Below the pieces are notes generated by a model. It searched no databases and had not been told where the DNA came from. It was given only the letters and a program-made list of their open reading frames with translations. Shown here one piece after another: positions 24,998 to 62,323 of a stretch of DNA of 64,000 bases (positions within the stretch are counted from its first letter, which is position 1; each line of letters opens with the position of its first letter). Made by a program: the position numbers and the translations under genes. Origin of the DNA: Escherichia phage EK8; the sequence record PQ805430.1; one strand, given 5' to 3'.

Positions 24998-25195
24998 TTA
25001 TTTCGGATACTTCGGGTCATTTTCTTTAAGCCAGATAACATGGCGATTGAAGGTATTAACCAGACGGTTGTATTCACCACCTGTGGCGACATTAATCATA
25101 TCAATGCCACATTCGAAGCTGCATGTTAGATTAGCAATCTGGATACTGGTCTTTCTGGCTTGTCGCTTATGCCACCAGATTTTAAGAAAGAGCAT
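24998..25195 (-). CDS. hypothetical small protein
   Basis: 65 aa from internal ATG 25195, 11 nt after RNAP II large subunit stop. Confidence 0.4.
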   Translation of the reverse strand: MLFLKIWWHKRQARKTSIQIANLTCSFECGIDMINVATGGEYNRLVNTFNRHVIWLKENDPKYPK

Positions 25196-26456: not shown

Positions 26457-26466
26457 AAGTTAATCC

Positions 26467-27879: not shown

Positions 27880-27881
27880 TT

Positions 27882-33641: not shown

Positions 33642-33648
33642 ATTGATG

Positions 33649-40294: not shown

Positions 40295-40359
40295 GAAAGG
40301 TTTCCTTTCTCTTTAAATTGACAATAATGGGTGAAATTATTCACCAGAGCAGAGGACAT

Positions 40360-42597
40360 ATGACTGACCTTGCCCCCGATGACGTACAGATTGCTGCTGG
40401 GGTAGAGGTGCCTAAGCTGACCGACTGGTCGCGTGAACCGACGCTTTCCATTTTCAAACAGGACTTGCAGAGTTGCGAATCCTCGCACCAGGCTCAGATG
40501 AGCAAGGTCGAAGAATGGAATGACTATCGGAATGCGACCGGTAAAGCGGCACCGAAAACCACTAAAGGGCAATCCAAAGTTCAGCCTAAACTTATTCGTA
40601 AGCAGGCTGAGTGGCGGTATGCTGCATTATCGGAGCCGTTCTTAGCAAGCCCAGATCTGTTTAAAGTCTCCCCGATTACCTGGGAAGATAAGAAGGGGGC
40701 TGTTCAGAACGAACTCCTGTTGAACATGCAGTTTACTAACAAGATGAACCGTGTTGCTTTTATCGATGAGTACGTTCGTGCTGCTGTCGATGAGGGCACC
40801 GTTGTGCTGCGTACTGGTTGGGACTTCGAAGAGGTTGAAGAAACCGTCGAAGAACCTATTTACCAGGGTATGGTTGATCCTCGCATGAGCGATATCTATC
40901 AGCAGATGCAGCAACTGGAAATGGAAAACCCAGTCCAACTGCTCAGTCTTGACCAATCACTGCAAGACGGATATGCCCAGTTCAAACAGACTGGCTTACC
41001 AATCCGTTTAATTCAAACCGGCGTGCGTATGGTTAAAAAGATGCGCACCGTCAAAAATCAGCCAACTCTGGAAGTATGTCGGTTGGCAAACCTCTATATT
41101 GATCCTTCATGTAATGGTGATATTAAAAAGGCCAACTTTGTAGTTTATGCCTTCGAAACCTCCATCGCGGAATTGAAGGCAGAGGGCCGTTACCGAAACC
41201 TGGAGAAACTCAATGTCTCATCTGAATCGCCTTTATCGGCTGCTAACTTCACCCCGAATGCTGCCCCCGATTTCCAGCCAGCAGGTAAATCCCGTAAGAG
41301 AATTGTTGCTTACGAGTATTGGGGATATTGGGATATTGACGGTAGCGGTCGTCTTACTGCAATTGTCGGCACATGGGTAGGTGATACCCTCATCCGTCTG
41401 GAAGAGAACCCTTTCCCTGACGGTGAACTTCCATTCACTATCGTGCAATACCTGCCGGTGCGTAAGGCCGTATACGGTGAACCCGATGGCGAACTCCTGA
41501 AAGATAACCAGGATATCGCTGGTGCTGTAACCCGTGGGATGATTGACCTGCTCGGCAAATCGGCTAACTCGCAGACTGGCTTCGCCAAGTCTCTGCTCGA
41601 TAGCCTCAACAAGAAACGTTACCAGCAGGGACTCGACTATGAGTTTAACCCTGGGGTATCACCGGAAAATGGTATCTATAGCCACAAGTACCCGGAGATT
41701 CCGGTATCTGCTCAGTACATGCTGAGCCTGATGAATACCGAAGCCGAATCCATGACAGGTGTTAAAGCGTTTGCCAATACCGGTCTGGACGGTGACTCCC
41801 TGGGTGGTACTGCTACGGCAGTCCGTGGGGCACTGGATGCAGCATCCAAACGTGAGATGGGTATCCTCCGTCGTTTATCCACTGGCTTAGTGGAAGTGGC
41901 CCGTAAGGTCATTGCCATGAATGCTGTATGGCTGGACGAGGAAGAGGTAGTCCGTGTTACCGAAGATGAGTTTATCCCGGTACGTCGTGACGATCTGAAA
42001 GGTGAGTTTGACCTCAAGGTCACTATCTCCACCGCAGAAGCCGATGAGCAACAAGCTCAGGATCTGGCATTCATGCTCCAGACTCTGGGTAACAATATCG
42101 ACTTCGGTATGACTCAGATGATCCTCGGTGAGATTGCCCGTCTGCGTAAGATGCCTGATCTGCAACACAAGATCATGTCCTTCCAGCCGCAGCCTGATCC
42201 GATGCAGCAAGCTATCCAGCAAGCTCAGCTTGAACTGCTGCAAGCTCAGATTGAACTTACCCGTGCTCAGGCTCTCGAAGCTGGTACTAAAGGTTCTCTC
42301 AACCAGAGCAAGGTTCCTGTTGAACAGGCTCGTGCTAACCACATTCAATCCAGTGCGGATAAAAACAATCTGGATTTCCTCCAGGAACAGAATGGGGTTA
42401 AACACCAGCAACAACTGGAACTTACCCGGACGAAAACTGATGAGCAAATGGCACTCGCTGAGTTGCAAAGTAACCATCAATCCACGTTGGCTAAGCTCAC
42501 CCATAACTTAAATCTGTTGCAGGAACATGCGAAGGCTGGCTTAAACAGACAGACTCAACGTATGAATAACGCTGGACGAAGCCCAGCAACTGCGTAA
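40360..42597 (+). CDS. portal protein
   Basis: 745 aa from ATG 40360 (GAGG RBS); Gln-rich coiled-coil C-terminus; two genes upstream of major capsid gene as in N4. Confidence 0.6.
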   Translation: MTDLAPDDVQIAAGVEVPKLTDWSREPTLSIFKQDLQSCESSHQAQMSKVEEWNDYRNATGKAAPKTTKGQSKVQPKLIRKQAEWRYAALSEPFLASPDLFKVSPITWEDKKGAVQNELLLNMQFTNKMNRVAFIDEYVRAAVDEGTVVLRTGWDFEEVEETVEEPIYQGMVDPRMSDIYQQMQQLEMENPVQLLSLDQSLQDGYAQFKQTGLPIRLIQTGVRMVKKMRTVKNQPTLEVCRLANLYIDPSCNGDIKKANFVVYAFETSIAELKAEGRYRNLEKLNVSSESPLSAANFTPNAAPDFQPAGKSRKRIVAYEYWGYWDIDGSGRLTAIVGTWVGDTLIRLEENPFPDGELPFTIVQYLPVRKAVYGEPDGELLKDNQDIAGAVTRGMIDLLGKSANSQTGFAKSLLDSLNKKRYQQGLDYEFNPGVSPENGIYSHKYPEIPVSAQYMLSLMNTEAESMTGVKAFANTGLDGDSLGGTATAVRGALDAASKREMGILRRLSTGLVEVARKVIAMNAVWLDEEEVVRVTEDEFIPVRRDDLKGEFDLKVTISTAEADEQQAQDLAFMLQTLGNNIDFGMTQMILGEIARLRKMPDLQHKIMSFQPQPDPMQQAIQQAQLELLQAQIELTRAQALEAGTKGSLNQSKVPVEQARANHIQSSADKNNLDFLQEQNGVKHQQQLELTRTKTDEQMALAELQSNHQSTLAKLTHNLNLLQEHAKAGLNRQTQRMNNAGRSPATA

Positions 42598-42663
42598 AAC
42601 TATAGGCAGGTTGGATAATTTATTGTATTGTCCACCTGCCTTAACTCTATATGAGGTTACCGT

Positions 42664-42984
42664 ATGTCTTTAGAAACCGAACTCGAAAGCCAGATTAGCC
42701 GTGATACAAAAGTCATGGAGAAAGGTAAAGCGTTACGACGACTCCTTAATAGCTCCGACTTTAAATCCGTAATCATTAACGGCTTCCTTCGTGAATATGC
42801 GCTCCACCTGGTTTACCAGCGTGCGGAATCCACGGAAGATGGGGATAAAGTTTCTCGTAAGATCGATGCAGTAGCCGAATTTAAAGCGTACATCGATAAA
42901 GTATTATTGGACGCTGCAACCGCAGAGAAGACAGTTGGCGAAGCCAGCGAAGCACTTCTCTCTATTCGAAATAACGAGGAATAA
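42664..42984 (+). CDS. hypothetical head-assembly protein
   Basis: 106-aa ORF between portal and scaffold-like genes. Confidence 0.45.
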   Translation: MSLETELESQISRDTKVMEKGKALRRLLNSSDFKSVIINGFLREYALHLVYQRAESTEDGDKVSRKIDAVAEFKAYIDKVLLDAATAEKTVGEASEALLSIRNNEE

Positions 42985-42986
42985 GC

Positions 42987-44171
42987 ATGAGTGGAAACGC
43001 CGAGCAACTAGGTCAGGACGTTGACGTATTCGCAATGTCGGATGACGAATTAAGCCGGTTGGATATCTCTCAATACCTGGGTGGTGCAGAACCGTCCCCG
43101 AAAGAAGATCCCCAACCTGAACAAACTACCGTTACCGAACCGGAACCGGAAACTCCGAACCCGGATGATAACGGTGAAGTTGTAGAGACAGGTGAGGGCG
43201 ACCCAAAACCGGGTGACGATGCTGAAGCACCTAAACCGGGTGAAGGCGAAGATGAGCCGAAGCCGGAGGCGGAGCCGGAAGGCAAGGCGAAATCTGAGCC
43301 GGATGCTGATCCTAAAAAGCCTGATCCTTCATCTCAGAATGTACCGGATTACAAAGCGTTTTATGAGCAACTCACCAAACCCTTTAAAGCCAATGGGCGT
43401 GACCTGACTCTCTCCAGCCCGGAAGAGATGATTACGCTTATGCAGATGGGCGCGAACTACAACGCGAAGATGGCTGCTCTGAAACCCAACCGTCGCTTTA
43501 TGAAGATGCTTGAGCAGAACGAACTGCTGGACGAAGGTAAGCTCGGTTTCCTTATCGACCTGAGCAAGCGTGATCCTAAAGCAATCGCCAAGCTGGTGAA
43601 GGACAGCGGATTTAATTTCGACGAGTATGATCCTGATGCCGAAGTGGACTATCAGTCCAAGCACACTGCACCTCCGGTTGAACAGATCGACCTCGAAGAT
43701 GTTGTTACTGAACTCGGCCAGCAACCTGGTTTCGCAGATATGCTGAACGTGGTTACTACTGGCTGGGATGCTGCAAGCCAGGAAATCGTTGGTAAGAACC
43801 CGCAGATTCTGCGTGTCCTCCAGCAACAAAAAGCCCTGGGCCACTTTGACCTGATCCAGGCAGAAGTAGATCGCTCCGCATTGTTAGGTAAAGCCAATGG
43901 CATGACCACGCTTCAACTGTACTCTGCTGCTGAGCAAAAACTGATGCAGGAAGGTAAGCTGGGTGTTGCACCGCAACCTCAACCTACCCCTGCTCAGCAA
44001 GCTGCACCGGTAGTAACTGCTCCGGCTAAGAAGGACAATACTGCTGCTAAAAAAGCTGCTGCTGCACCGAAGCAAACCGTACAGGGCAAAACCTCTGCAC
44101 CGGTAAGTGATAATTTATTTTCACTTTCTGATGAAGAGTTTGCTAAGATTGACCCAACTAAATTTAAGTAA
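42987..44171 (+). CDS. scaffolding-like protein
   Basis: 394 aa; acidic Pro/Glu-rich low-complexity N-terminus, helical remainder; immediately upstream of major capsid gene. Confidence 0.45.
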   Translation: MSGNAEQLGQDVDVFAMSDDELSRLDISQYLGGAEPSPKEDPQPEQTTVTEPEPETPNPDDNGEVVETGEGDPKPGDDAEAPKPGEGEDEPKPEAEPEGKAKSEPDADPKKPDPSSQNVPDYKAFYEQLTKPFKANGRDLTLSSPEEMITLMQMGANYNAKMAALKPNRRFMKMLEQNELLDEGKLGFLIDLSKRDPKAIAKLVKDSGFNFDEYDPDAEVDYQSKHTAPPVEQIDLEDVVTELGQQPGFADMLNVVTTGWDAASQEIVGKNPQILRVLQQQKALGHFDLIQAEVDRSALLGKANGMTTLQLYSAAEQKLMQEGKLGVAPQPQPTPAQQAAPVVTAPAKKDNTAAKKAAAAPKQTVQGKTSAPVSDNLFSLSDEEFAKIDPTKFK

Positions 44172-44185
44172 GAGGCTGACTATTT

Positions 44186-45358
44186 ATGGTTATGCAATAT
44201 AAAGACCCCGCTAATGGGCGTGAGTCCAGTGTTGGCCCGCAGATTATCACTGCGTACTACCAGCGCCAGGCTTTGACCGAACTGCGTAAAGAGCAGTTCT
44301 TCACCCAGTTGGCTAACGCTCAATCTATTCCGTCGAACTACGGTAAGAAAATTAAGCGTTTCCACTACATGCCGATCCTCGACGAACGCAATATTAACGA
44401 CGAAGGTATCGACGCAACCGGTGCGAAAATCGTTAACGGTAACCTGTACGGCTCCAGCAAAGATATCGGCTCTGTGCCGAACAAGCTGCCGGTACTGGGC
44501 GAAAACGGTGGTCGTGTTAACCGCGTTGGTGTTACCCGTCTGGAACTGGAAGGCACCTTTGAGAAGTTCGGCTTCTTCACTGAGTACACCCGTGACTCTC
44601 TGAACTTCGACACTGATGCTGACCTGTTGATGCACATCAACCGCGAACTGCTGACTGCCGCGAACCAGATCACCGAAGATGCCCTGGGCATCGACCTGAT
44701 CAACAACGCCGGTACAATCCGTTATGCGGGCGAAGCAACCCAGCGTAGTGAAATCGGCCAGGGTGACGTGGTTACCTACGTTGACCTGATGCGTCTGTCT
44801 ATCGACCTCGATAACAACCGCACTCCGAAACACACCACGATCCTGACTGGTACTCGTAACATCGATACCAAAGTCGTTCCGGCTGCACGTTATGCGTACA
44901 TCGGTTCCGAACTGATCCCAACCCTTCGCGCGATGACTGACCTGCATGGTAATCCGGCGTTTATTTCTGCCGAGCATTACGCTGCTGGTACTACCCTGGC
45001 GACCGGTGAAGTTGGCCAGATCGACCAGTTCCGTTTCATCGTTAACCCGAACATGTTCAAGTGGGAAGGTGCCGGTGCGACTCTGGAATCTGGCGATGAC
45101 GCTGTGTACTACAACAACGGCGAGAACTATGACGTGTTCCCGATTCTGGTTGTTGGTGACGAGTCCTTTGCGACCATCACTTTCCAGACTTCCGGTAACT
45201 CCGTTAAGTTTGAAATCAACCACAAGAAACCGGGCGAAAACCTCGACCGTCTTGACCCGTATGGCGAAACTGGCTTCATCTCTATTCGCTGGTTCTACGG
45301 CTTCATGGCACTGCGTCCTGAGCGTATCGCACTGGTTCAAACTGCTGCCAAGATGTAA
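44186..45358 (+). CDS. major capsid protein
   Basis: 390 aa; AAGAGG RBS; high-expression-type codon usage; followed by strongest terminator in window. Confidence 0.65.
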   Translation: MVMQYKDPANGRESSVGPQIITAYYQRQALTELRKEQFFTQLANAQSIPSNYGKKIKRFHYMPILDERNINDEGIDATGAKIVNGNLYGSSKDIGSVPNKLPVLGENGGRVNRVGVTRLELEGTFEKFGFFTEYTRDSLNFDTDADLLMHINRELLTAANQITEDALGIDLINNAGTIRYAGEATQRSEIGQGDVVTYVDLMRLSIDLDNNRTPKHTTILTGTRNIDTKVVPAARYAYIGSELIPTLRAMTDLHGNPAFISAEHYAAGTTLATGEVGQIDQFRFIVNPNMFKWEGAGATLESGDDAVYYNNGENYDVFPILVVGDESFATITFQTSGNSVKFEINHKKPGENLDRLDPYGETGFISIRWFYGFMALRPERIALVQTAAKM

Positions 45359-49646: not shown

Positions 49647-50060
49647 ATGGGTGAATTAACTTCTCTCATCCAGAACCTGTTTGGTGGGGGTACTCAGGCA
49701 GACACGGTGCCTATTACTCCTAATATGGCAGGGGCAAGTATCAGCTCTAATGCCTCACCGAATGCGTTCAATACCCCGACTATTACTGACACCCTCAGTA
49801 ATGGTATGTCTGGTTTGCAGATCGGCCAGCTTGGACTGGGTGCTGCTAATGGCCTGCTCAATGGTTATCTTGGTTTCCAGAACCTCAGACTTGCTAAAAG
49901 CCAGGCACGTCAAGCTCAACAGAACTGGGATAAACAGTGGTCTGCCAATGTGAAGAACACTAATGCTGCGCTGTCTGACCGACAGGCTGCTCGTGTCGCT
50001 TCTAACCCTAATGCGTATGAGTCCGTGGACTCCTACATGAAAAAATACGGGATCAGCTAA
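49647..50060 (+). CDS. virion protein (hypothetical)
   Basis: 137 aa, Gly/Asn/Leu-rich. Confidence 0.5.
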   Translation: MGELTSLIQNLFGGGTQADTVPITPNMAGASISSNASPNAFNTPTITDTLSNGMSGLQIGQLGLGAANGLLNGYLGFQNLRLAKSQARQAQQNWDKQWSANVKNTNAALSDRQAARVASNPNAYESVDSYMKKYGIS

Positions 50061-51223
50061 TGGCAACTATTCGGACACAACAACTGGCTCCGGTAAACTT
50101 CGGTGATTCCAATCAACTCCTGCGGGTTGCACAACAGCTCATTCAGCAGGGTGCTGGTGGCCTCGTCGATACCTTCGGACAGTTACGTCAGAATGTTGTG
50201 GATCGAAACACTGCTAATGCGGTTAACCTGCTTACTGGTGCTCAGTCAACCGATGAGTTGGCTCAGCGTCAGGGGCAGGTTGCCCAGATTCTCCAGGCTG
50301 CAAATGGGGATATCAACAACGAAGCAGTGCAACGAGCGCAACTGACCATGCCGGATACACTGTTAGGCCGTCAGCTTAACACCAACCGGATTACGGAGTT
50401 CAACCAACAACAACATGACCAGCCTCTGTTAAACCAGGCTATGGCTCTGTACGCTGCTGGCGATAAAGCCGGTGCTCAGCAAATTCTGTCTGGTGTTCAG
50501 GGTGATGCTTCCAAAGCATTGACCTTTGGTGCCAGCCGGGAAGACGCTGCTGCTCAGCGTAGTCTGCAAGAACGTCAGCTTGGTATTCAGGCTGCTGGTT
50601 TGGCATTACGTCGTCAGGCCGCTGCACAACGTGCTGCTGCTGCGGGGAATAGCAGTAAACAGTTACAGGGGATGCTTAATAAGATCCTCGGTATCACTGG
50701 TGATGCGAATATCGCTTCTACCGAAGCTGCGGTCAAAGAAGAGAACGCTCGTTTGAAGGATGCGGAGAGTAACAACCCTCTGCTGAATCCGAACAACGAC
50801 TCTACTGCGGCTGCTGCTAAGATCACCAATGACAACCGGTCTGTATTGACCAGTTTGCTTCCTAACTCCTGGCGTAGTGACCGGGGCGGTCGTCTTTTAG
50901 GACTCATTGATCAACTGGATCCTGATAAGAAGCTCACCGAAAAAGAACGCACCAACATGCTTAAGGGCATGAACGATGTGTTTGAGAACGCGAACCTTAA
51001 CGAAGATCCAGATAAAGCTGCTTTAGACTGGGGTAAAAAAGCTCTGGATAACTTAGGTAAAGTTCGTACCCAGCGATTGCAAAATACTCAATCTCAGATT
51101 GATCAGAAGAAGGCTACCCGACTCGCTCAAATGCAGGTATTATTACAAAGCATGTTAGCGAACGGTAATGGTCAACTCGACCCAATGGCCCTTCAACTGC
51201 TCAATCAAGATTATGAGGAATAG
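50060..51223 (+). CDS. virion protein (hypothetical), Gln/Ala-rich
   Basis: 387 aa; immediately upstream of vRNAP gene. Confidence 0.5.
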   Translation: MATIRTQQLAPVNFGDSNQLLRVAQQLIQQGAGGLVDTFGQLRQNVVDRNTANAVNLLTGAQSTDELAQRQGQVAQILQAANGDINNEAVQRAQLTMPDTLLGRQLNTNRITEFNQQQHDQPLLNQAMALYAAGDKAGAQQILSGVQGDASKALTFGASREDAAAQRSLQERQLGIQAAGLALRRQAAAQRAAAAGNSSKQLQGMLNKILGITGDANIASTEAAVKEENARLKDAESNNPLLNPNNDSTAAAAKITNDNRSVLTSLLPNSWRSDRGGRLLGLIDQLDPDKKLTEKERTNMLKGMNDVFENANLNEDPDKAALDWGKKALDNLGKVRTQRLQNTQSQIDQKKATRLAQMQVLLQSMLANGNGQLDPMALQLLNQDYEE

Positions 51224-51225
51224 CA

Positions 51226-54200
51226 ATGGCAGACTCTCTGTTGTCCCAGGCTCTTAATGCTTTAAGCAACGGCGAGTTCACCAATCCTACCGAAGCTGTT
51301 TCCGTTCCGCAGGCTGCTCCCCAGCAGCCTGTCTCCAAAGATTCTCAAGTCCTTGACGCCACCCAACGTATTAATACTGGCTTTGCTGCTAAGGGCATCT
51401 ATCCGTCTATCTCTGGTGAAATCGAACGTTTAAATCAGCAAAAAGCAGGACGTGAACAAGTCGTTCAAGCATACGAAGAAGATATGCAACGTCTGGTTCC
51501 AACCAACGCTTTAGAGTCTGGTTCCCCGGTAATTCGCACCGGTGCCCAGATTACCAACGCAATGGCTGGTTTCGGCAGTTCAATTGCACGTATCGCTCTC
51601 CAGGTGAAAAACCTTAACAATCTCGGTGCTGTAGCTGCCGGGATGGACGGTGCCACCGATGAAGAAAAACTCGCCTTTAACCGTGAAGCCACTCAACGTG
51701 GTGCTGAGGCTGCTGCACTGGTAGGCAATAATGCCCGTCGTGTTCAGGATATCCTCGGCGGTGTTCCGGGTGCGTCTGCTAAGGCGATTGCCGAAGCATC
51801 TGAAATCCCGAATCAGCTTAAGGCTTACCCTTCTGATACCAACCTGCTTGACCGTGAGATTCCTCGTGGTGCAGCAAAAATTCCTTCTGCAACTCAGGAC
51901 GATTCTCTTCTGGGTTCGGTAGGTCAATACTTCAATAACCTGAATGATCGACTTGTCGGATCGGTAAATGGCATGACTGGTGAAGACCAGACCGGCCAGA
52001 CTGAATCTGTACGTGACCGACTGCAACGTGCTCAGACTGCCCTTACCCAAACTCAGAAATCCCTGGGTAACACTGCACAAGGCGTCGATAACGAATGGGG
52101 AACGGACTCCTGGGTTAACCGTGAACAAACTCAACGTATGGCTCAGCAACTGGAAGAAGAGAATAAAGATCTCTCCATCCCTGGTGCTATTGCTAACACT
52201 GTTGGGGAATATCTGGCTAACCCTTCACTGGTTATCCAATCTGCCGCAGAGTCCTTACCTTACGCACTTGGTCGTGTCGGTATCATTGCCGGTACTACCG
52301 GTCAGGCGGTACAAAACCAGACTGATGGTTACCGTGGTCAGGCAGATGGACAGCTTCCTACTGATGAGCAAATCAGTGATGTAACCCGACTCAATGCGTT
52401 GCATTCTGGTTTGAACTTTGTGGAGAACGTAGTCAATGCACGCGCTCTTACCGGTCTTAGCAATGCTGCTATCACTGCTCCACTTCGCCGTGGTGGTGAA
52501 GCACTGGCTGATACTGCCCTCGGACGAGCGATTACCAACGCTGTCGCTCGGAATGGCGTATCTCGTGCTGCTCTGGCAGCAGGGCGAGCAATTACTCCCG
52601 AACCTGTTAGGGAACTTGGCCTGACTATGGCCATTAACGGTCTGACCGAAGCTGCACAAAATCAGATCGAAACTCGCAACCTGCTCGGTGATGATCGCTG
52701 GGATACCGAAGGCAACATCAATGCTGGTGTGCTTGGTGCCCTGTCTGCTGGTGTAATGACTGGCCCATCTACTCTGGCGGCTGGTGCCGGTGCCGTAGGT
52801 GAGCGTATTGCCCGTGCTGCTCAGGAACGTCGTGACGCTGCTAACCCACAAGCTGCCGAAGCTCGTCGTGCTGCACAAGACGCTGCTAAGCCGTTTGAAG
52901 ATCTGACCAACCCGGAACATGCGGATTACAACCCGCAGGCTGCTATTCGCCAACAGACCAACGTGTTTGCTGATGAATCAACTACTCCTGAAGTACGTCA
53001 GGCTGCTATCGACCGTGCTCAGTCCGTCCGTGATTCTGCCGAACAGAACCTGGCTTCGGTTACTGATGAAGTACGCCAAATCCAGAAAGATATGGCTACC
53101 CGTCAGGAAATCGAACGTCGTCTGGAAGATATCCAGACCAACCCGGATTCTGAGTACAAAGGTAGCGAAGCTCAACTGACCACTATCCGTGACCAGATTG
53201 ATGAGCGTATGCCGGATGAAGCTGCTCAACAGGATCTGGTTTCCCGCTTCCAGGCTGCAAACGAAAACGTTGAACGTGTGCGTAGTGCCTACGATCAGTT
53301 TGAGAATGCTGCTGGTCTGCGTGAACGTCAGGCTCCAGAAGAAGCTCAGGCTCAGATGGATACTGCTACCAATCCTGATGCAACTCAGGAACAGGTTGAT
53401 ACGGCTGCTGACCATGTGGTTACGCACCCTATGCAGTACACCCCGGAACAACTCCGTACTCTGGCCGATGATACGACCAACCGTTTCAGCGACACTCAGC
53501 GTGAAGCGATTCGTAAACTGGCTGATGCCCGTGTTGCCCAGAACAACCTGAAAGATGATCTGCGTGTAAACCAGGATATTATGCAGGGTGGTAAGGGCTA
53601 CCGTTCCCTGGGTGAATACACCTCTGCTTATGCTGCTGCTATCCGTTCCGGTGATAAGACTATGGCTACCAACCTGCGTGAGCAGTTAGGTCGCTTCCAG
53701 GCTTCTCATGAACAGAAAGCTGCCGTTGCTCAGCAAATGATGGACTCTGGTAACTACGGCCAGCTTATCCGTCAGAACAGTCAGTGGGTGGCTAACGAAG
53801 GTAAGAAACTTCGTGGTAAAGATAAGACCCGTAACGGTGCTCTGGATATTCATTCTGGCTCCGGTCGTCTGGTTGCTCGTCTTCAAGAAGAAGCCGAAGC
53901 AATCCGTGCAACTTCCGCTGCCCTGGATGCAATGTCTCAGGCTCGTCCGGCTGCTCCCGCTACCGCTCCGCAGCCGTCCTCCCCTGCACCAGCGAACGAC
54001 GCAACCACAACGGTGGAGGCGAAGCCGGAACCGGCAGTGGTGGAGTCGGAAGCGACTGTTACCAAATCATCCCTCTCTCACTATGCCAATGACGGCGTAC
54101 TGACTCAGGATGCTGATGGTGATATGGCTCTGCGTCTGGATCAGTTCTCTCCGGCTGAACAACAGTTCCTGCGTGACAACAATATGGTTGATGCTCAGAA

Positions 54201-57200
54201 CATGGTTAAAGCTGCTTTCTTACGCCGTGCTGAACCGCGTAAAGATGACGCCCATAAACCACGTACTCTGAACCAGCAAGACCGCATTGCCCCGGCAGAA
54301 CAACAGACTCAGCAAGAGCAGGTACAGGCTCAGGATACCAATGAGAATGACCCTACTCCGGCCAGCACTGTAGAAACCGACACCAACGTAACTACCGATC
54401 AGACTACGGCAACGAAGACTGACGAGAACACGAAGGCAGACGGTGCTACCCGTGTCCTACGTCCAGAAGGTAAATCTCTGGAGACTGCCCGTACCGAAGA
54501 ACGAGCTAAGCCATTCTCAGAACAGAACCTTGTTCTCACTGGTTTCGTTCAGCGTGTCCGTGAAGGTTTCGTTAACCCACTGGTTACCGTTGAAAACTTC
54601 ATGTCCAGCGTTATGGATAAAGCTGACTGGTCTGGTCGCTTCACCGAAGTGAACCGTTACCTTGCTCAGCCGATGAACGCTGCCCAGAAGAATCTGGTCG
54701 GTATGTTCACCAAATTCCATAAAGCAGTGGAAGGTGATATCGATCCTGCTATTAAACAGAAGATCGGTAAAACCCGTGGTGGTCTGGATCGCTCTGCTTA
54801 TAACTACCAGGATTTTGTCCAGTTTCTTACCACTGACGGTAAACTGGATGAAAACACGAAGACGGCCCTGACCGCCTCTATGTTCACCTGGCTTGCAGAG
54901 AACGGTAACAAGCTCATCGCCACTCGTGACGATATGGCTGGCCTGTTCCATATGGATAAAGGTGAAGTACCGGTAGAGATCCATAATCGCTTCTCTGAGA
55001 TCGGTTCTTCTCAGCGTGCTGTTATCCAGTCCCTTGGCCAACGTGCTTACCAGATGCTGGGCTTCAAGGTACTGAAAGACGTTGACCCTAACCGTGCTGG
55101 ACGTATGCAGCAAGCTCTCGGCATGTACGCAATGCACGTTATGATGAAACGTGGCTACCTGGAGCAGACAACTATGACTGCTCGTGAGTACGCCGACGTT
55201 ATCACTACTGGTTTGGATCCTGAAGCTGCTCAGGCTAAACGTGCAGAGTTTGCTCGTGACTTCCTGAATGGTGAGTCCATCGATAAAGCGAAAGAGACAT
55301 TCAACTTTGTTCGTGTACCACGTAAAGAAGTAAACGGTAAACTCGTACCGGCAGATAACATTGCCCGTATCGTTGAAGCCAACAAAGGGACTTCCGGGGT
55401 TATGAGCAAGCTGTTTAGCTTTGACTCATCCCAGACTTTCCCGTTGACTAAGAAGCCAGGTAAATTCATTCAGAATACCGTAGGTGACTTTGGTCAGCAG
55501 GTTCCTTCTGAATTGGCAGAACGTCTGACTAAAGCCCAGCAACAACCGTACCGGATCAATGAGTCCCTGGTTAACGCCATGAACACGATCCGCAATGTGG
55601 ATGAAGCTGCATTGCTGCACATGATGGGTGTTCGTACTGAGACAGAAACTCCGTTCATGCACGCTCGTGACCGTATCGGGCAGCAGGCCAAAAACGACGA
55701 TATCATTCGTGCTCTGGCTAATGCTGATGAGGTAATGGGTACTCTGGATTCCATCGACCAGCAGATCTATATGCCGCTGGCAGTATGGAGTAACAACCGT
55801 GTCGGCGTAGCGTCCAACATGCTCAACCCGCAGGGGAACAAAGTTCACCGTGCAATGGTAGGCATGGAAGCACACCGTGTTGATATCCCGGTAAACCAGG
55901 CACCAATCGACGCCAACGGTAACATCACTGAGTACGGCCAGTTCTTACTGACTGTGGCTCAGGGTATGGAAGAGGCGCCGATCAAGAAACCAGGCACTAC
56001 TGATAAGATGCCTACGGTTGATAAAGTGACTGGTGGTACTTATCTGCAAGGTATGCAGGAATACCTGAAAAGTGACAGCGTTCGTGCTGGCATTAAAGCC
56101 ATGCAGAATATCGTTGAGGGTAACTCCACTCCGCGTGATATCGAAACCGTTAAGCAAACCGTTGCCGAATTTGGCATGGGGCCACACTCCTTCCAGTCAC
56201 TCCATGCACTGGCTCTGGTTAACCAGGCTCGTGAACAGGGTGCTGAAAAAGTGCAGGTTGCTATCGGTGGCGAATCAGATGGTGTCACCAACGGGCCGAT
56301 CCTTACCAATGTGCTCTATGGTACGGCAGACACTGACCTTCTCGCTCGTGGTGGCCTTTACACTGCTGACGCTGGTGTTACCAACGTACCGCAGTACCGC
56401 GAACAAGGTGGGCAGGACTACTACCAGTTATTGGGGACAGCTCAGAAGGAAGCATGGGATGCCATGTATCCTCCGACGACTGGCCGGGTAACGGATCAGA
56501 ACCAGAAGTTCCGTCGTGCAATTGATTACTTATCTCCTGGTTTCGGCTCTCGTTCGAAAGCCAAAGTACAGGCTACCCCATTCAACTACGGTTCCGGTAT
56601 GGACTCGCTCAAGCGAGCAAGTGCCAGAGACACCATTGATAGTGTCTACGGTCATATCACTGATATTGCCGAAGCCTATAGCCGTTCCAAAGTTGAGGGT
56701 GATTTTGCTCGCCATAAACTGGAGAAAGCAATCGAGATCGTACTGGCCCAGGGCAAGACGCTAGGGATTAAAGTTCCCGCATTTTCCGGCCTGGGTAAAA
56801 CGGAATCACTGTTAACCACCGAATTGCCACGTCCAATTGTGGACGCGATTATGCAGATCGATATGGCTATCCGTGGTGAAGCATCCGAGACTGCGATTGA
56901 GCGTGTTGCTGCTCACTACATCAAAACCCGTGACACTAACACTGCGATTACTAATGCAGCGTTTGAAGTGGGCAAAGTTGTACGTGACCGTGCAGAGGCT
57001 CTGGCTCTGGAACAGGCAGTTAAAGACGGGCAAGTAGGTTCCATCAACGATATCGCCGTAGAAGGCTTATCGACTGATGCAAAAGCTAACCTGTCTGAAC
57101 AACTGCGTGAAGCCAGTGCTATCGTCCCTACCGCTACCGGATCCCTTTCCAAAAATAAACTGGAATCAGGTTACGTGGCTGCTAAGGTCGGTACTACCTT

Positions 57201-60200
57201 CAAAACCAATGACCCAACCACCGAGGTATATGCCTCGTTCCGTGAGGGTGCTAACCCTACTGGTACTGGCTTAACCAACACCAAACCGACGACCTTTAAG
57301 GACGTAAGATCTGGCGCTCAGGTTAAAGAACAGATCGCTCCGGGTGTGTCTACAAGTGCATTGGTTGTGCAGGGTACTGATGCTGCAATCTCAACTCGTG
57401 TTATCGCTGAGCGTCCGGCTCAGAACTTCCATGATGCGAACCTGTTCGCTATTACGGATATGATTGAAGGTGCCAAAGCGCAGAACAAAGCCATGTGGGA
57501 TACAGTGGTCGGTTATGACTCTCAGTTAGCGAATACCGAAGCATTAATCCGCACCCTAGAAGGTGTTACCCAACAAGACGGATTAACGTCACTGGATTGG
57601 ATTAATATTGCCGGGTCTTTGCAACAACTGGCTTTCAAGGCTGAACTAATTGGATCCCCTAAAGAGTCCGTATCGGCGGTAGCCGTACTTGGACGGGTAG
57701 TCGGTGATGCTTATAACCGTGAGATTGCCAAGCTCAACACACTCAACGAAGTTGAGTATGTAAACCAGTATGGTTATGAGGGTGGTGAATACCAGGTTAC
57801 TGCTGCCGACCGTAAAGCTCTGGCTGACAAAATTGACTCTCTACGCATATCACGGGATAAAGCGGTTGATAAGGCAATGACTCTTGGCGGTGAACTAAAT
57901 ACCCTGCTACAGCAAGGTACAACCACATCCAAGCGTAAAGCCGATGCTGTTAATGCTGCTCAACGCCGTCAGGCTATTGAACAAGCTGCTGCTGATAGCG
58001 TACCGGTTACCCGTGATGCCAAAGGCAAGAACGCTCTTGAGCGTTTCCTGACTGAAAGCAAAGACGGCACCGTTAATGCTAAAGACCTGATGAACTTTAC
58101 CGTTAAGTCCCTGGCTTCCGGTCGTACTGATGGTTCAGCACTGCAAAGCCGTATGCGTACCACTTACAGCGAACTTGCTAAAGTGCTCGCAGCGACTCTG
58201 CCGGAAAACCTGACCGTTAATATCCTGTCTGCTCAACATAATCCAAAAGGGGTTATGGGTGCTGAGCAGAACGTTAACTCACGAGCATGGTTTTATAGTG
58301 ACGGTAAGGTAAACCAGATCAACATCAAGATGGATGGCCCGGAAGCACCGGGGCTGGAAGTTGTGCTGCATGAAATGCTTCACGCTGCCACTGCCCGTGC
58401 TCTGGATGCTGCTCGCCGTGATCCTAAAGCTAACCCGGCTCTGACCGAAATCGTTGGCCGACTGGAATCACTGCGTAGCGAGATCGAACAGTCCGTACAG
58501 AGTATGCCTCAGTTTGCACCGGCAGTCCGTAACGTGGACGAGTTAATCTCGTGGGGTATGACTAATCCGGCATTTCAGCAACATCTTGATGGTTTGCAGT
58601 CCTCCATGTACCCACGTCAACGCGAAGGTGTACGTGGTCGTCTGGGTTCCATGTTTAAACAGTTTGCCAACACTGTGCTGCGTGCGGTCTACGCCTTTAC
58701 TGGTCGTAAGCCTTCCGCTAAACAGATGACGGCAATGGAAGCCCTAATTCTGGATACTGCTGACGTACTCCAGACTGCCACGGTTAATCCGGGCAATGCT
58801 GGTAACGTTAATCTGGCAATGGCCTCATCTACCCGTGCAGCACAAACTGCCGGACAGTACACCCATCGCCAGATATTCGATGCTCTGTCGTCCTCGACTG
58901 CTGGTAAGCGGAACACTTCTGCCTTTACCGGAAATCTGGGTAAGATCATCGAAAATGTATCGGATAAACTGTTTAGTCAAATTGGTGGTGATCACCTGAC
59001 CAACCTTCCGGCAGGTCACGGTTATACACCGGGCCAGGTATGGGCGAATGCTCTTACCGGGGGCAAGGCACCGTTCACTACCAAAGCATTGGCTGCTGGT
59101 TTCCACATGACTGACCAGGAAGCATTCGCTATCGAGTCCATTGAGACTGCGGTTGCTGCTGCTCTGGATTCTGGTTTCGGTACTGCTGTGAACCGTGAGA
59201 TCCGTAAATCCTGGGAAGCTGCCCGTAAGCAGGTAACCCCGGAACAGTTCCATAACGGTAACTGGAATACGGCTACCCCGGCAGAGAAAGCTGCTGCACA
59301 AGCAAAGTGGGATCACCTGTTCAAACTGGAAGCCAGCCAGAACGGTAAGAACCGCTACCTCGCACAGTTTGTGGCAATGACTCTGGGTCATGAAGAAACC
59401 AGTAAACTGATGGGCTTCACCAATGAAGTTGCCGATGCTAACGCTCCGGTCACTCCGTTCGAGAAAGCTGCTGCCTTCTTTAACCATTCGGTTAACTGGG
59501 CATCGGGTTACCTGACTCGCACCAACAATGGCCAACTGGTAAACCAGAAGGCTCAGGCACTGGCTCAACAGTTGATTGAAATCGACTTGAAGAACCGTGA
59601 CAAATCCGTTGATGCACTTGAGAAAGCGTTTATCTACGTCAGCGATCTGGGTGAGAAAGCTGGTAATAAAATCTGGGATGCTGCTCATGCAACTGCTGAT
59701 GCGAAACTGATTCGTGAGAACCCTCTCGGTATCGTTCGTATGGCCGGGTCTATTACCCGTCTGGCTGCTAAGCGTAATCTGGATGTGCTGAGCGATACCA
59801 TTCGTCAGGTACGTGATATGAATAACCCGAATACCGCTGATGGTTGGGCTGCTCAAATCCTGTCTGATATCGCTAACCCGGATAAAGTACGTAGTGCGTT
59901 CGAATCGCTGCAACGACACACGAACCTCATTGAACAACGTCGCCGTAATTTCGCAGAAATTACTCGTGGCAACGTGATGGGAGCGTTCGAAAATAACGGT
60001 GAGTATCTGACCAACGAAGATAAAACTGCGTTGTCTTATACCCTGCTGCGAACCGAAGCACACTCACTGCTCAATACCCGCTCCCTGGATGACGTTCAGC
60101 AACTGGTTTCCAGCAAAGCTAAACGTAATGCAGAGATTCGTAATCTGGAGCAAATCGTATTGGCAGATCCGAATGGTAATGATATGGTTATCCGCGCTAA

Positions 60201-62316
60201 AGCACTCGGCTATTATATGGTGACTGGGAAACCAACTGATGTAGGTTTAGCTAAGAATGCACAAGCCATTGCTTCTGGAGCTGGTACTCACTACGTCACG
60301 ACTGGTTTAGCAGACCGCAATGGTGCCCTGACAGAGGCAATAGATCAACTGGCTACTCTGTACGCCATAGACTACTCAAAACCAGAGCATTTATCGGCTA
60401 CTGCTGCCGTCATGAAACGTGAGATGGCTAACCCTTACAATGGCATTAAAGCGTTGCTGAATGTGCATAAAGTGCTGGCCGAGGACGCAGCCTCTACCCT
60501 GTTCCAGGATAACGAGATCTCCCGGATTAAAGGCTACGTTCCAGAGGTAACCAACCCTTATCGTGATGTGAAGATTGTTGAAGAGGGTGACCGTGCTCAA
60601 CGTTCAGAGCTTGAGGCAATGGGGTATCAGTTTGTAGGCATGGTGCCGACTGATCCGACTATCCCAAGCATGGGCAAGAAAGCAATGTACGCCACTAAGG
60701 ACAACGGCTCTCAACGTTACGTGTCTGGTGCTGTGAGCTTAACCAGCAATCAACGTAAAGGTTCGTCGGCTATCCGTAACCAGAACTACCGCAAAGGGCA
60801 AGGCCCGACTGTGGCCGATGGCAGCAAAGCTGTGTATGCCGCTGCTCGTCGCCGTGCTCAAATGAGTTATAAAGACTTTGACCCTACTCAGGTTAAAGAT
60901 ACTTATATGATTCCGGTGTTCGGAACTGATGGCCGTATTATGGACTTCCAGTACGAGATGAATGCCACTAACCGTGACACTCTGCTGGATCGTAACAATG
61001 ACTTTGCACACCTGCTGGGTCAGTACGCAGGGCAGAACTTCGATAAGCTGCATAGCCCGACTCAGAACCGAGTCATTATGGAAGCTTTACACGAAGACTA
61101 CCGATCCAACTACGCTGCCAATCCAGAGCGTTACGTTGCAATTGGGCCACAAGTTGCTGATGCCCGCTCCAGAGAAATCTGGGCTATGCTGCCGCAACAG
61201 ACCCGTTACGACGCTGAATCAATCTGGGGTGCAGGCGAACCTATGCAGGTACGCAGTGATCTGGTCAACCTCGTGTTCGGTTTCCGTAAGCTGACAGTGG
61301 CGAATGCCTTTGATAAGGATGCCCAGGATCGCAATATGGCCGAGTCTTTAGCGACCTCCGTTTTCAACACTCTGGGCCTCCTGACCAATTCCAACGGGAA
61401 AGTCATGGCTGCTCAGACTGAACGTGGTGTTCAAGGGGGTGTTGAACTACTGAAAGATATTATCGTGATCCGTAACGTCACCACTTTGATGCGCAACCTA
61501 GTGGGTAATGCAGCATTGCTGAAAGCCTATGGCGTGTCTCCGACTGATATTGTGAAGGACACCAAGACTGCTTTACAGGCTGGTTTGAGCTACCGCAAAA
61601 ACACTGCACTGCTGCTGAAATACCAACAGCAACAACGTGCAGGTATCGGTAACTACGAACAGCTTGAGCAGAAGATCATTCAACTGGAAGACCAGCTTGC
61701 TCGTAACCCGATCAAGGACTTCATCGAAGCCGGTACTATGCCGAGCATAGTTGATGATGTAGATACTTCTGATACTGCGTATACTTTTACGTCAGGCTTA
61801 CAGCAGAAGATCTCTGGTGTGACTGATAAAATCCCGGCATCTGTACGGACGGCGGCTAAGTGGGCGTTTGTGACTAAAGACACACCGCTTTACAAATTCC
61901 TGTCCAATACCGCTCAGTTCGGTGACTTTACGTCGAAATATGTGCTGTACAAATACAGTATGAATAAGGCGGATACTAAACTGAACCACGCAGAAGCGGT
62001 ACAGCGTGCAACCGATGCGTTCGTTAACTACGACCTGCCGACTTCGCCAGAGTTGCAGTATATGAACGACATGGGTTTGTTCATGTTTACGAAGTATCGT
62101 CTGCGGATCCAGCGTGCAATGCTGACCCTGATGAAGGAACGTCCGGGCACTGCACTGGCTCAATCCGTACTGGTGTCGCGCTTTACCGATGCACCTCCGG
62201 CACTGGAGCCTAACTTAATTACTGGTTTGGGTAATCCGTTCTCATCCGGCGTATTGCAGTTGCCGAATGCACTGACCCAGCCGATGCCGATTAAGTTAAT
62301 CCTCGGATCGCTGTAA
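51226..62316 (+). CDS. virion-encapsidated RNA polymerase (N4 vRNAP-like giant protein)
   Basis: uninterrupted 3696-aa ORF; size and position at end of late structural unit match N4 gp50; catalytic motifs not mapped by eye. Confidence 0.8.
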   Translation: MADSLLSQALNALSNGEFTNPTEAVSVPQAAPQQPVSKDSQVLDATQRINTGFAAKGIYPSISGEIERLNQQKAGREQVVQAYEEDMQRLVPTNALESGSPVIRTGAQITNAMAGFGSSIARIALQVKNLNNLGAVAAGMDGATDEEKLAFNREATQRGAEAAALVGNNARRVQDILGGVPGASAKAIAEASEIPNQLKAYPSDTNLLDREIPRGAAKIPSATQDDSLLGSVGQYFNNLNDRLVGSVNGMTGEDQTGQTESVRDRLQRAQTALTQTQKSLGNTAQGVDNEWGTDSWVNREQTQRMAQQLEEENKDLSIPGAIANTVGEYLANPSLVIQSAAESLPYALGRVGIIAGTTGQAVQNQTDGYRGQADGQLPTDEQISDVTRLNALHSGLNFVENVVNARALTGLSNAAITAPLRRGGEALADTALGRAITNAVARNGVSRAALAAGRAITPEPVRELGLTMAINGLTEAAQNQIETRNLLGDDRWDTEGNINAGVLGALSAGVMTGPSTLAAGAGAVGERIARAAQERRDAANPQAAEARRAAQDAAKPFEDLTNPEHADYNPQAAIRQQTNVFADESTTPEVRQAAIDRAQSVRDSAEQNLASVTDEVRQIQKDMATRQEIERRLEDIQTNPDSEYKGSEAQLTTIRDQIDERMPDEAAQQDLVSRFQAANENVERVRSAYDQFENAAGLRERQAPEEAQAQMDTATNPDATQEQVDTAADHVVTHPMQYTPEQLRTLADDTTNRFSDTQREAIRKLADARVAQNNLKDDLRVNQDIMQGGKGYRSLGEYTSAYAAAIRSGDKTMATNLREQLGRFQASHEQKAAVAQQMMDSGNYGQLIRQNSQWVANEGKKLRGKDKTRNGALDIHSGSGRLVARLQEEAEAIRATSAALDAMSQARPAAPATAPQPSSPAPANDATTTVEAKPEPAVVESEATVTKSSLSHYANDGVLTQDADGDMALRLDQFSPAEQQFLRDNNMVDAQNMVKAAFLRRAEPRKDDAHKPRTLNQQDRIAPAEQQTQQEQVQAQDTNENDPTPASTVETDTNVTTDQTTATKTDENTKADGATRVLRPEGKSLETARTEERAKPFSEQNLVLTGFVQRVREGFVNPLVTVENFMSSVMDKADWSGRFTEVNRYLAQPMNAAQKNLVGMFTKFHKAVEGDIDPAIKQKIGKTRGGLDRSAYNYQDFVQFLTTDGKLDENTKTALTASMFTWLAENGNKLIATRDDMAGLFHMDKGEVPVEIHNRFSEIGSSQRAVIQSLGQRAYQMLGFKVLKDVDPNRAGRMQQALGMYAMHVMMKRGYLEQTTMTAREYADVITTGLDPEAAQAKRAEFARDFLNGESIDKAKETFNFVRVPRKEVNGKLVPADNIARIVEANKGTSGVMSKLFSFDSSQTFPLTKKPGKFIQNTVGDFGQQVPSELAERLTKAQQQPYRINESLVNAMNTIRNVDEAALLHMMGVRTETETPFMHARDRIGQQAKNDDIIRALANADEVMGTLDSIDQQIYMPLAVWSNNRVGVASNMLNPQGNKVHRAMVGMEAHRVDIPVNQAPIDANGNITEYGQFLLTVAQGMEEAPIKKPGTTDKMPTVDKVTGGTYLQGMQEYLKSDSVRAGIKAMQNIVEGNSTPRDIETVKQTVAEFGMGPHSFQSLHALALVNQAREQGAEKVQVAIGGESDGVTNGPILTNVLYGTADTDLLARGGLYTADAGVTNVPQYREQGGQDYYQLLGTAQKEAWDAMYPPTTGRVTDQNQKFRRAIDYLSPGFGSRSKAKVQATPFNYGSGMDSLKRASARDTIDSVYGHITDIAEAYSRSKVEGDFARHKLEKAIEIVLAQGKTLGIKVPAFSGLGKTESLLTTELPRPIVDAIMQIDMAIRGEASETAIERVAAHYIKTRDTNTAITNAAFEVGKVVRDRAEALALEQAVKDGQVGSINDIAVEGLSTDAKANLSEQLREASAIVPTATGSLSKNKLESGYVAAKVGTTFKTNDPTTEVYASFREGANPTGTGLTNTKPTTFKDVRSGAQVKEQIAPGVSTSALVVQGTDAAISTRVIAERPAQNFHDANLFAITDMIEGAKAQNKAMWDTVVGYDSQLANTEALIRTLEGVTQQDGLTSLDWINIAGSLQQLAFKAELIGSPKESVSAVAVLGRVVGDAYNREIAKLNTLNEVEYVNQYGYEGGEYQVTAADRKALADKIDSLRISRDKAVDKAMTLGGELNTLLQQGTTTSKRKADAVNAAQRRQAIEQAAADSVPVTRDAKGKNALERFLTESKDGTVNAKDLMNFTVKSLASGRTDGSALQSRMRTTYSELAKVLAATLPENLTVNILSAQHNPKGVMGAEQNVNSRAWFYSDGKVNQINIKMDGPEAPGLEVVLHEMLHAATARALDAARRDPKANPALTEIVGRLESLRSEIEQSVQSMPQFAPAVRNVDELISWGMTNPAFQQHLDGLQSSMYPRQREGVRGRLGSMFKQFANTVLRAVYAFTGRKPSAKQMTAMEALILDTADVLQTATVNPGNAGNVNLAMASSTRAAQTAGQYTHRQIFDALSSSTAGKRNTSAFTGNLGKIIENVSDKLFSQIGGDHLTNLPAGHGYTPGQVWANALTGGKAPFTTKALAAGFHMTDQEAFAIESIETAVAAALDSGFGTAVNREIRKSWEAARKQVTPEQFHNGNWNTATPAEKAAAQAKWDHLFKLEASQNGKNRYLAQFVAMTLGHEETSKLMGFTNEVADANAPVTPFEKAAAFFNHSVNWASGYLTRTNNGQLVNQKAQALAQQLIEIDLKNRDKSVDALEKAFIYVSDLGEKAGNKIWDAAHATADAKLIRENPLGIVRMAGSITRLAAKRNLDVLSDTIRQVRDMNNPNTADGWAAQILSDIANPDKVRSAFESLQRHTNLIEQRRRNFAEITRGNVMGAFENNGEYLTNEDKTALSYTLLRTEAHSLLNTRSLDDVQQLVSSKAKRNAEIRNLEQIVLADPNGNDMVIRAKALGYYMVTGKPTDVGLAKNAQAIASGAGTHYVTTGLADRNGALTEAIDQLATLYAIDYSKPEHLSATAAVMKREMANPYNGIKALLNVHKVLAEDAASTLFQDNEISRIKGYVPEVTNPYRDVKIVEEGDRAQRSELEAMGYQFVGMVPTDPTIPSMGKKAMYATKDNGSQRYVSGAVSLTSNQRKGSSAIRNQNYRKGQGPTVADGSKAVYAAARRRAQMSYKDFDPTQVKDTYMIPVFGTDGRIMDFQYEMNATNRDTLLDRNNDFAHLLGQYAGQNFDKLHSPTQNRVIMEALHEDYRSNYAANPERYVAIGPQVADARSREIWAMLPQQTRYDAESIWGAGEPMQVRSDLVNLVFGFRKLTVANAFDKDAQDRNMAESLATSVFNTLGLLTNSNGKVMAAQTERGVQGGVELLKDIIVIRNVTTLMRNLVGNAALLKAYGVSPTDIVKDTKTALQAGLSYRKNTALLLKYQQQQRAGIGNYEQLEQKIIQLEDQLARNPIKDFIEAGTMPSIVDDVDTSDTAYTFTSGLQQKISGVTDKIPASVRTAAKWAFVTKDTPLYKFLSNTAQFGDFTSKYVLYKYSMNKADTKLNHAEAVQRATDAFVNYDLPTSPELQYMNDMGLFMFTKYRLRIQRAMLTLMKERPGTALAQSVLVSRFTDAPPALEPNLITGLGNPFSSGVLQLPNALTQPMPIKLILGSL

Positions 62317-62323
62317 AAAATAA

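Follow-up and report, generated by a model that had tools for sequence, protein, structure and literature searches.

The virion RNA polymerase (vRNAP) of phage N4, gp50 (PDB 2PO4, 3C2P, 9PNQ/9PNR, 11FW), is laid out as an N-terminal domain (NTD), a linker, a polymerase domain (Pol), a second linker, and a C-terminal domain (CTD) made of subdomains C1 and C2. The N4 NTD has predicted membrane-spanning helices (PMC13434306), and encapsidation of the N4 protein requires the CTD, which also keeps the polymerase autoinhibited by holding the plug and the motif-B loop locked (N4 cryo-EM papers). In the Cbunavirus phages, the vRNAP of CB1 (gp77, or CB1_77) was found in purified virions by tandem mass spectrometry with 37 unique peptides (PMC6027278). 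Here, we describe the gene at positions 51226..62316 (plus strand) of a 64,000-nucleotide stretch of Escherichia phage EK8 (PQ805430.1), the whole of which is referred to below as the window. Its product belongs to the same length class as the Cbunavirus vRNAPs (CB1 gp77, CB3, CB4, phiA41, Nepra, Possum, Horatius, and Kc283), and its gene neighborhood is identical to theirs. We conclude with high confidence that this gene is an intact, normal vRNAP of the N4 gp50 family in a Cbunavirus-like schitovirus.

The giant reading frame matches the virion RNA polymerase family end to end

The gene and its translation signal are as follows.

51226..62316, plus strand, vRNAP gene (gp50 homolog), 3696 amino acids plus stop (open reading frame [ORF], PHROG 2206 match, identity to CB1 vRNAP)
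51215..51219, plus strand, Shine-Dalgarno sequence GAGGA, 6 nt 5' of the vRNAP ATG (direct sequence reading)

The ORF list and the translation show one ATG-initiated frame of 3696 codons with no internal stops, and the chance probability of an open frame of this length at 50% GC is about (61/64)^3696, roughly e^-177. The TAG of the preceding gene (51221-51223) ends 2 nt ahead of the vRNAP ATG, and the start is the annotated start of the CB1 vRNAP, residue for residue. When the protein was compared with PHROG 2206, "virion RNA polymerase," residues 84 to 3692 fell on positions 14 to 3402 of the 3406-position profile in one alignment (E = 0), and N4 gp50 (residues 25 to 3499) also aligned with this profile over a comparable span. 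The window product is, like the other members of the family (about 3300 amino acids or more), a giant single polypeptide that matches PHROG 2206 from end to end.

BLASTP comparison with CB1 gp77 (3693 amino acids) gave 85.5% amino acid identity with three gap positions, a divergence of about 15%. At the nucleotide level, the gene was 82 to 83% identical to 16 annotated vRNAP genes at 98 to 100% coverage, a set that includes those of Pectobacterium phages CB1, CB3, CB4, phiA41, Nepra, Possum, and Horatius and of Kosakonia phage Kc283. An identical full-length protein was not present in a collection of 15 billion proteins. Pfam searches of the whole protein returned no matches at E <= 1, those of the NTD, C1, and C2 separately gave nothing above noise, and the sequence-profile threshold of the T7-like polymerase family RNA_pol (PF00940) was not reached. 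The preliminary description of this DNA, which had reported an uninterrupted frame of 3696 residues at 51226-62316 and taken it for the virion RNA polymerase of an N4-like phage, was therefore correct in coordinates and length by the ORF list and the translation, and in its assignment by the full-length PHROG match and the identity to the CB1 protein.

The polymerase core looks catalytically competent

The features of the polymerase core are as follows.

54442..57900, plus strand, single-subunit (T7-like) RNA polymerase domain, residues 1073-2225 (family hidden Markov model [HMM], AlphaFold2 model, Foldseek)
55798..55800, plus strand, R1525, equal to N4 R424 of T/DxxGR, here W-S-N-N-R followed by NPQ (multiple sequence alignment; invariant in 48 sequences)
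56278..56280, plus strand, motif A catalytic aspartate D1685 (DGVTNGP), equal to N4 D559 (multiple sequence alignment, HMM)
56551..56589, plus strand, motif B, R1776...K1780...Y1788 (YGSG), equal to N4 R666/K670/Y678 (multiple sequence alignment, HMM)
57433..57435, plus strand, motif C catalytic aspartate D2070 (NFHDAN), equal to N4 D951 (multiple sequence alignment; H997/D998 invariant in alignments A1/A2)

Since BLASTP against N4 gp50 aligned nothing beyond the CTD and a short stretch with motifs A/B, family profiles were needed for the rest of the protein. A word-indexed search for homologs of the central 1150 residues gave a single 659-residue fragment, so an exhaustive HMMER search was made with residues 1101 to 2250. 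This search found 629 homologous clusters, nearly all in proteins of 3300 to 5963 amino acids and at the same relative position. An HMM built from the central-region matches hit N4 gp50 residues 1324 to 1874, inside the crystallized polymerase domain, at E = 3e-46, and the full family profile found the N4 vRNAP chains in the PDB at E = 8e-175.

In a full-length alignment of 48 sequences, N4 R424, D559, R666, K670, Y678, and D951 correspond to the identical window residues R1525, D1685, R1776, K1780, Y1788, and D2070. These catalytic columns are invariant across the 48 sequences except at the N4 Y678 position, which holds Y or F. The Pol domain is thus homologous to the N4 mini-vRNAP and carries its motif A, B, and C residues, with T/DxxGR kept as the arginine alone.

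An AlphaFold2 model of residues 1073 to 2225, built from 21 sequences, had a mean predicted local distance difference test (pLDDT) score of 87.9 and a predicted template modeling (pTM) score of 0.84. When this model was compared with the PDB by Foldseek, the ten best matches were all N4 vRNAP (E = 2e-30 to 1e-25; template modeling [TM] score, 0.67 to 0.72), followed by yeast and human mitochondrial RNA polymerases and T7 RNA polymerase (E = 1e-10 to 1e-12; TM score, 0.33 to 0.42). The predicted structure therefore has the N4 mini-vRNAP fold. The window domain has in common with T7 RNA polymerase and with the mitochondrial enzymes POLRMT and Rpo41 the right-hand Pol fold, the motif A and C aspartates, and the R/K/Y of motif B; unlike in those enzymes, it is embedded in a 3696-residue virion protein, presumably uses single-stranded DNA hairpin promoters, and is not a member of the Pfam profile. 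By the conserved residues and the model, this domain contains a T7-like core that appears catalytically competent.

The preliminary description had proposed a profile search of the central third against T7-like polymerase models and had regarded the absence of a T7-like core there as fatal to its assignment. T7-like Pfam models gave nothing at E <= 1, but the family HMM and the fold comparison did reveal the core, the same two routes by which it is seen in N4, and the homology to N4 Pol, the catalytic residues, and the predicted fold all locate it in this region.

Some of the core-bearing cluster representatives (P0020, P0077, P0123, and others) are much longer, at 4200 to 5963 amino acids. 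Their length would fit the fusion of additional effector domains to some members of the vRNAP family.

Domain layout and length relative to N4 gp50

Domain boundaries were mapped by projecting the N4 boundaries (PMC13434306, PMC13492108) through the alignment. The layout is that of N4 gp50, and the parts outside Pol and the CTD are as follows.

51226..53925, plus strand, NTD, residues 1 to ~900 (phrog_2206 profile match, hydropathy scan)
53926..54441, plus strand, linker 1, residues ~901-1072, low complexity and rich in P/A/T/Q/E, equal to N4 907-1007 (sequence; multiple sequence alignment, in which N4 G1008 is window G1073)
57901..58008, plus strand, linker 2, residues 2226-2261 (multiple sequence alignment)

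The NTD alone matched phrog_2206 profile positions 14 to 909 (E = 6e-95), a profile that N4 gp50 covers as well, which suggests that the NTD is of the family type. The first 525 residues contain four Gly/Ala-rich, weakly hydrophobic segments (residues 107-127, 335-362, 402-420, and 496-525), similar in kind to the predicted membrane-spanning helices of N4 but weaker. Compared with the CB1 protein, linker 2 is the least conserved stretch (67% identity), and a region near residues 800 to 900 is 69% identical.

The window protein, at 3696 residues, is 196 residues longer than N4 gp50 (3500 residues), an excess that the preliminary description had put at about 200. It is distributed as follows.

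NTD plus linker 1, window 1-1072, N4 1-1007, +65 residues
Pol, window 1073-2225, N4 1008-2104, +56 residues
Linker 2, window 2226-2261, N4 2105-2122, +15 to +18 residues
CTD, window 2262-3696, N4 2123-3500, +57 to +60 residues

The alignment with N4 gp50 that had been suggested for placing the extra sequence was run and returned scattered indels, not one discrete insertion. The excess is the net result of many indels in both directions and in all domains; the largest, of 48 to 52 residues, are found in the NTD, linker 1, and Pol (near residue 1334). Identity to N4 over aligned columns is 16 to 20% in every domain. The length is unremarkable, since it is the norm of the clade (CB1, 3693 residues) and lies inside the family range, with a median of 3531 residues among the listed family representatives.

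The C-terminal domain and its HExxH module

The CTD consists of two subdomains, with the following features.

58009..58782, plus strand, CTD subdomain C1, zincin-like metallopeptidase module, residues 2262-2519
58369..58383, plus strand, HExxH, H2382-E2383-M-L-H2386 (columns invariant in alignment A4 and in 48 sequences)
58540-58542, plus strand, E2439, putative third ligand of HExxH (invariant column)
58783..62313, plus strand, CTD subdomain C2, alpha-helical autoinhibitory and encapsidation domain by homology to N4, residues 2520-3696

With phmmer, the CTD matched full-length N4 chains at E = 1e-44 to 1e-47. A CTD HMM matched N4 in both subdomains, at E = 5e-138 for C2 (N4 2427-3451) and at E = 1e-15 for C1, so that the domain is homologous to the N4 CTD, with its HExxH-bearing C1 and helical C2. 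In an AlphaFold2 model of the segment with this module (segment numbering), HExxH lies in helix 123-144 and E185 lies in helix 183-192. This is the zincin-like arrangement (ATLF/M34-like gluzincin) of HExxH on one helix and a downstream glutamate on a following helix, and H2382, E2383, H2386, and E2439 are all invariant. HExxH and the catalytic residues of Pol are identical to those of N4 gp50.

The C1 module also matched the 1337-residue "Internal virion protein" of PDB 9sfn_G (E = 1e-5; with the family profile, E = 9e-14), and a 116-residue C1 query aligned over 97% of its length with phiKMV gp37, a gp16-equivalent ejection protein. The gp16-type ejection proteins of the Autographiviridae (phiKMV gp37, PDB 9sfn_G; PhiM1 gp48) have in common with the window protein a zincin-like HExxH module of about 100 to 130 residues. 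Like vRNAP, each is the largest ejected protein, and its gene comes last in the ejection-protein operon (PMC13434306). Unlike vRNAP, they have 1263 to 1337 residues rather than 3696 and no polymerase domain, and no similarity was detected beyond the HExxH module. The N4 ejection proteins are said to have no detectable sequence similarity to T7 gp14 to gp16 (PMC13434306).

The C1 module is already known. Iyer et al. assigned N4 residues 2130 to 2448 to the zincin-like metallopeptidases in 2017, with lethal factor as the top HHpred match, and placed this domain at the hub of the phage "polyvalent proteins," with autoprocessing as its proposed role (PMC5512222); the 2026 N4 structure paper also points out the HExxH motif. 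We therefore dropped the similarity between C1 and phiKMV gp37 as a new link, as both the zincin-like metallopeptidase of N4 vRNAP and its spread among polyvalent proteins were published in 2017 (PMC5512222). The explicit sequence similarity of C1 to gp16-type ejectosome proteins may nevertheless be underappreciated.

The vRNAP gene closes the structural and ejection operon

The neighboring structural and ejection genes and the end of the block are as follows.

40318-42597, plus strand, portal, gp59-like (phrog_1216)
Within 40318..45358, plus strand, gp58-like and gp57-like genes, between portal and major capsid (PHROG, N4/CB1 order)
42987-44171, plus strand, gp57 homolog, 394 amino acids ("tail length tape measure protein" in PHROG and RefSeq)
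44186-45358, plus strand, major capsid protein, gp56-like (phrog_1357)
49647..50060, plus strand, gp52 homolog, ejection protein of the outer-membrane complex, 137 amino acids (PDB 8vxq, N4 16.5-kDa protein)
50060..51223, plus strand, virion protein in the gp51 position, 387 amino acids (phrog_24558; the CB1_78 ortholog was found in virions by mass spectrometry, PMC6027278)
62322..62346, both strands, bidirectional intrinsic terminator with a 10-bp stem, 6 GC pairs, and T-runs on both strands (sequence)

The order of portal, gp58- and gp57-like genes, major capsid, gp55-, gp54-, gp53-, and gp52-like genes, the 387-residue virion protein, and vRNAP is that of N4 gp59 to gp50 and of CB1, and the vRNAP gene lies at the distal end of this structural and ejection operon, as it does in N4. 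Five genes separate the capsid gene from vRNAP and two separate the portal from the capsid, in agreement with the counts first given. The accompanying statement that the N4 gp50 to gp59 order is reproduced stands for the positions; in the gp51 slot, the synteny is positional only, since the 387-residue protein has no detectable similarity to N4 gp51. This protein may be a nonorthologous replacement of the N4 gp51 periplasmic tunnel protein. Its N-terminal 226 residues weakly matched a "lytic tail fiber" PHROG (phrog_28504, E = 2e-8). The gp52 homolog matched the "N4 gp52-like protein" of PDB 8vxq at E = 8e-12 and the N4 16.5-kDa protein at E = 3e-4. The tape-measure label of the gp57 homolog is probably a propagated misannotation, given a protein of 394 residues encoded between portal and capsid in a short-tailed phage, and a scaffold-like role is more plausible.

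The terminator at 62322-62346 sits between the vRNAP stop and a convergent gene for a 59-residue membrane protein (62331-62510, minus strand), whose 3' end it overlaps. Because this terminator follows the stop and the next genes converge on the minus strand, the vRNAP gene closes the rightward late block, as had been proposed.

Inside the vRNAP gene, a 412-residue antisense ORF (58825-60063, minus strand) was judged spurious. Its frame is codon-aligned with that of vRNAP, so that only the uncommon sense codons TTA, CTA, and TCA (1.6% of codons) give stops in it; about 0.08 antisense runs of this kind are expected by chance, and the CB1 sequence has two interruptions.

The early region encodes RNA polymerase II and contains candidate hairpin promoters

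Promoters of N4-type vRNAPs are single-stranded DNA hairpins with a stem of 5 to 7 bp and a 3-nt loop with a central purine. The early region of the window contains the following features.

25182..27468, minus strand, adjacent split RNA polymerase II (RNAP II) genes (gp15/gp16 homologs), 333 and 424 amino acids (phrog_2166, E = 6e-118; phrog_2051, E = 4e-151)
27866-27880, 28231-28245, 32444-32456, and 33066-33078, plus strand, four candidate TAT-loop hairpins (perfect stems of at least 5 bp)

The genome thus also codes for a heterodimeric RNAP II for the middle genes. The four hairpins are the only perfect TAT-loop hairpins with a stem of at least 5 bp on the plus strand of the window, and all of them are in the early region, where the plus strand serves as template for the minus-strand early genes. 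They have the common core GC-TAT-GC and resemble the predicted hairpin promoters of CB1, and two of the four lie about 45 to 50 nt upstream of starts with a Shine-Dalgarno sequence and ATG. Whereas the N4 promoter loop has -11G, the loops in the window have a central A (TAT). An alignment of the four hairpin contexts revealed no extended promoter sequence common to them. The four hairpins are plausible candidate vRNAP promoters from their sequence and position; possibly they are terminators instead. The genome logic outlined in the preliminary description, in which vRNAP serves hairpin-promoter early genes and a split RNAP II serves middle genes, was borne out for the RNAP II genes, while the hairpins are candidates only, with a motif count that is not significant.

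The interval 27469-27881, about 400 nt upstream of the gene for the small subunit of RNAP II, has no minus-strand ORF. It contains one plus-strand ORF of 110 amino acids, probably spurious, and has one of the GCGC-TAT-GCGC hairpins at its edge.

Relationship to other phages and genome arrangement

The rest of the window was covered over 45 to 79% by the Cbunavirus phages at 78 to 84% identity. This partial coverage, at such identity to the same phages, marks a distinct species-level Cbunavirus-like schitovirus. Closer relatives were found among metagenomic contigs alone, at 94 to 95% nucleotide identity over the structural genes and about 89.5% over the 5' part of the vRNAP gene.

About 136 bp of the window at 35356-35493, just upstream of the terminase large-subunit gene, are absent from two metagenomic relatives (L004 and L005), which are 94 to 98% identical to the window on both flanks. 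At ~33400-35500, the minus-strand early region abuts the plus-strand terminase-side late block. In the CB1 record, by contrast, the early and the terminase-side late regions are at opposite physical ends, with direct terminal repeats of about 650 bp. Because the two regions abut here, unlike in CB1, the window appears to be a permuted or circularized assembly, like the phiA41 record.

Evidence against the assignment and alternative explanations

Several observations weigh against an ordinary N4-type vRNAP system. In the polymerase core, the T/DxxGR motif is degenerate although its arginine is invariant: N4 has TRVGR, the window has W-S-N-N-R (55786-55800, residues 1521-1525), and the clade consensus is VWxNQRVG, with the arginine alone retained. 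The promoter-stacking W129 of N4 has no reliably aligned counterpart; an HMM alignment offered a tyrosine (at about residue 1194) as a possible one, in an unalignable stretch. The window-clade NTD did not match the N4 NTD by local HMM, phmmer, or jackhmmer, and the two are linked through the PHROG profile alone. The window NTD is also less hydrophobic than that of N4, with Kyte-Doolittle maxima of 0.86 to 1.19 in its segments compared with 1.29 to 1.47 in the N4 NTD, so that none of its segments reaches 1.2 and three N4 segments do. The hairpin core GCGCATAGCGC occurs in two exact copies, but 24 of 100 shuffled sequences reached two matches at <= 1 mismatch, and the 11-mer GCGCATAGCGC is not statistically enriched by itself. 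Among the neighbors, the 387-residue protein in the gp51 slot gave E = 0.89 against N4 gp51 (644 residues) by BLASTP, which is no detectable similarity, and matched no solved ejection protein. Finally, the support on EK8 itself consists of sequence and predicted structure.

One alternative is that the protein acts mainly as a gp16-type ejection protein or "polyvalent" effector with a degenerate or inactive polymerase, and that another polymerase transcribes the early genes. We consider this very unlikely, because the motif A, B, and C residues and the arginine of T/DxxGR are all intact and invariant across the family, and because the high-confidence model shows the entire Pol fold, in agreement with the active N4 enzyme. 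The silence of Pfam is no guide either, as N4 vRNAP itself is likewise missed by Pfam-type detection, and ejection and polymerase roles coexist in N4 (PMC13434306). The unusual size of the ORF and the absence of the exact protein from the 15-billion-protein collection might instead point to an assembly or frame artifact that fused adjacent genes, or to a pseudogene remnant. That explanation has almost no chance of being right: the protein aligns colinearly from end to end with CB1 vRNAP and with 16 further phage records, a metagenomic contig is colinear with the 5' 2.8 kb of the gene at ~89.5% nucleotide identity, and one PHROG alignment runs across the whole product of a frame free of internal stops. 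It is also extremely improbable that the ~200 residues in excess of N4 form an added functional domain such as an ART, lysozyme, or RNase module. Fusions of this kind do occur in the N4-like vRNAP family (PMC5512222), in which representatives reach 5963 amino acids, but no Pfam domain was found in any part of the window protein, and the +196 residues are spread over all four regions as indels of <= 52 residues in a protein of clade-normal length. The scattered two-way indels ruled out a discrete extra domain.

A further proposal goes beyond the polymerase assignment. If the HExxH...E of C1 marks an active metallopeptidase that shares descent with the gp16-equivalents of the phiKMV and PhiM1 type, vRNAP would in origin be an inner-membrane ejection protein of the gp16 type to which a T7-like polymerase was added, and its peptidase would act on vRNAP itself or on a host target once ejected. 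We hold this to be possible but rather doubtful; neither PMC5512222 nor the 2026 N4 structure paper reports an activity of the module for N4 vRNAP. Such a descent, if true, would concern the whole vRNAP family and not the window alone. The assignment of the gene as an intact N4-type vRNAP is the reading that we prefer, and nothing in it departs from the known Cbunavirus/N4-like pattern, so that the finding is an ordinary one.

Proposed role of vRNAP in infection

From experiments with N4 and CB1, we infer that the EK8 protein is packaged, ejected, autoinhibited, and anchored to the membrane and that it uses hairpin promoters. A few vRNAP copies would be packaged in the head, with the CTD (residues 2262-3696) serving in encapsidation and in autoinhibition of the polymerase as in N4. 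On infection, vRNAP would leave through the tail behind the gp52 and gp51-slot ejection proteins, and the NTD together with the long disordered linker would presumably hold it at the inner membrane or ejectosome. Once ejected, the enzyme would carry out early transcription, starting at single-stranded hairpin promoters; among the early genes are those of the split RNAP II, which would take over middle transcription.

The vRNAP gene neither opens nor closes an outstanding question, and the value of the finding is mainly in annotation: it identifies the window as DNA of a Cbunavirus-like schitovirus and settles what the neighboring ejection and structural genes, the early region, and RNAP II do. 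With it, a family for which a full-length structure was solved only in 2025 to 2026 gains a further diverged vRNAP, which may aid the comparison of conserved residues in the NTD, the plug, the motif-B loop, and the CTD interface.

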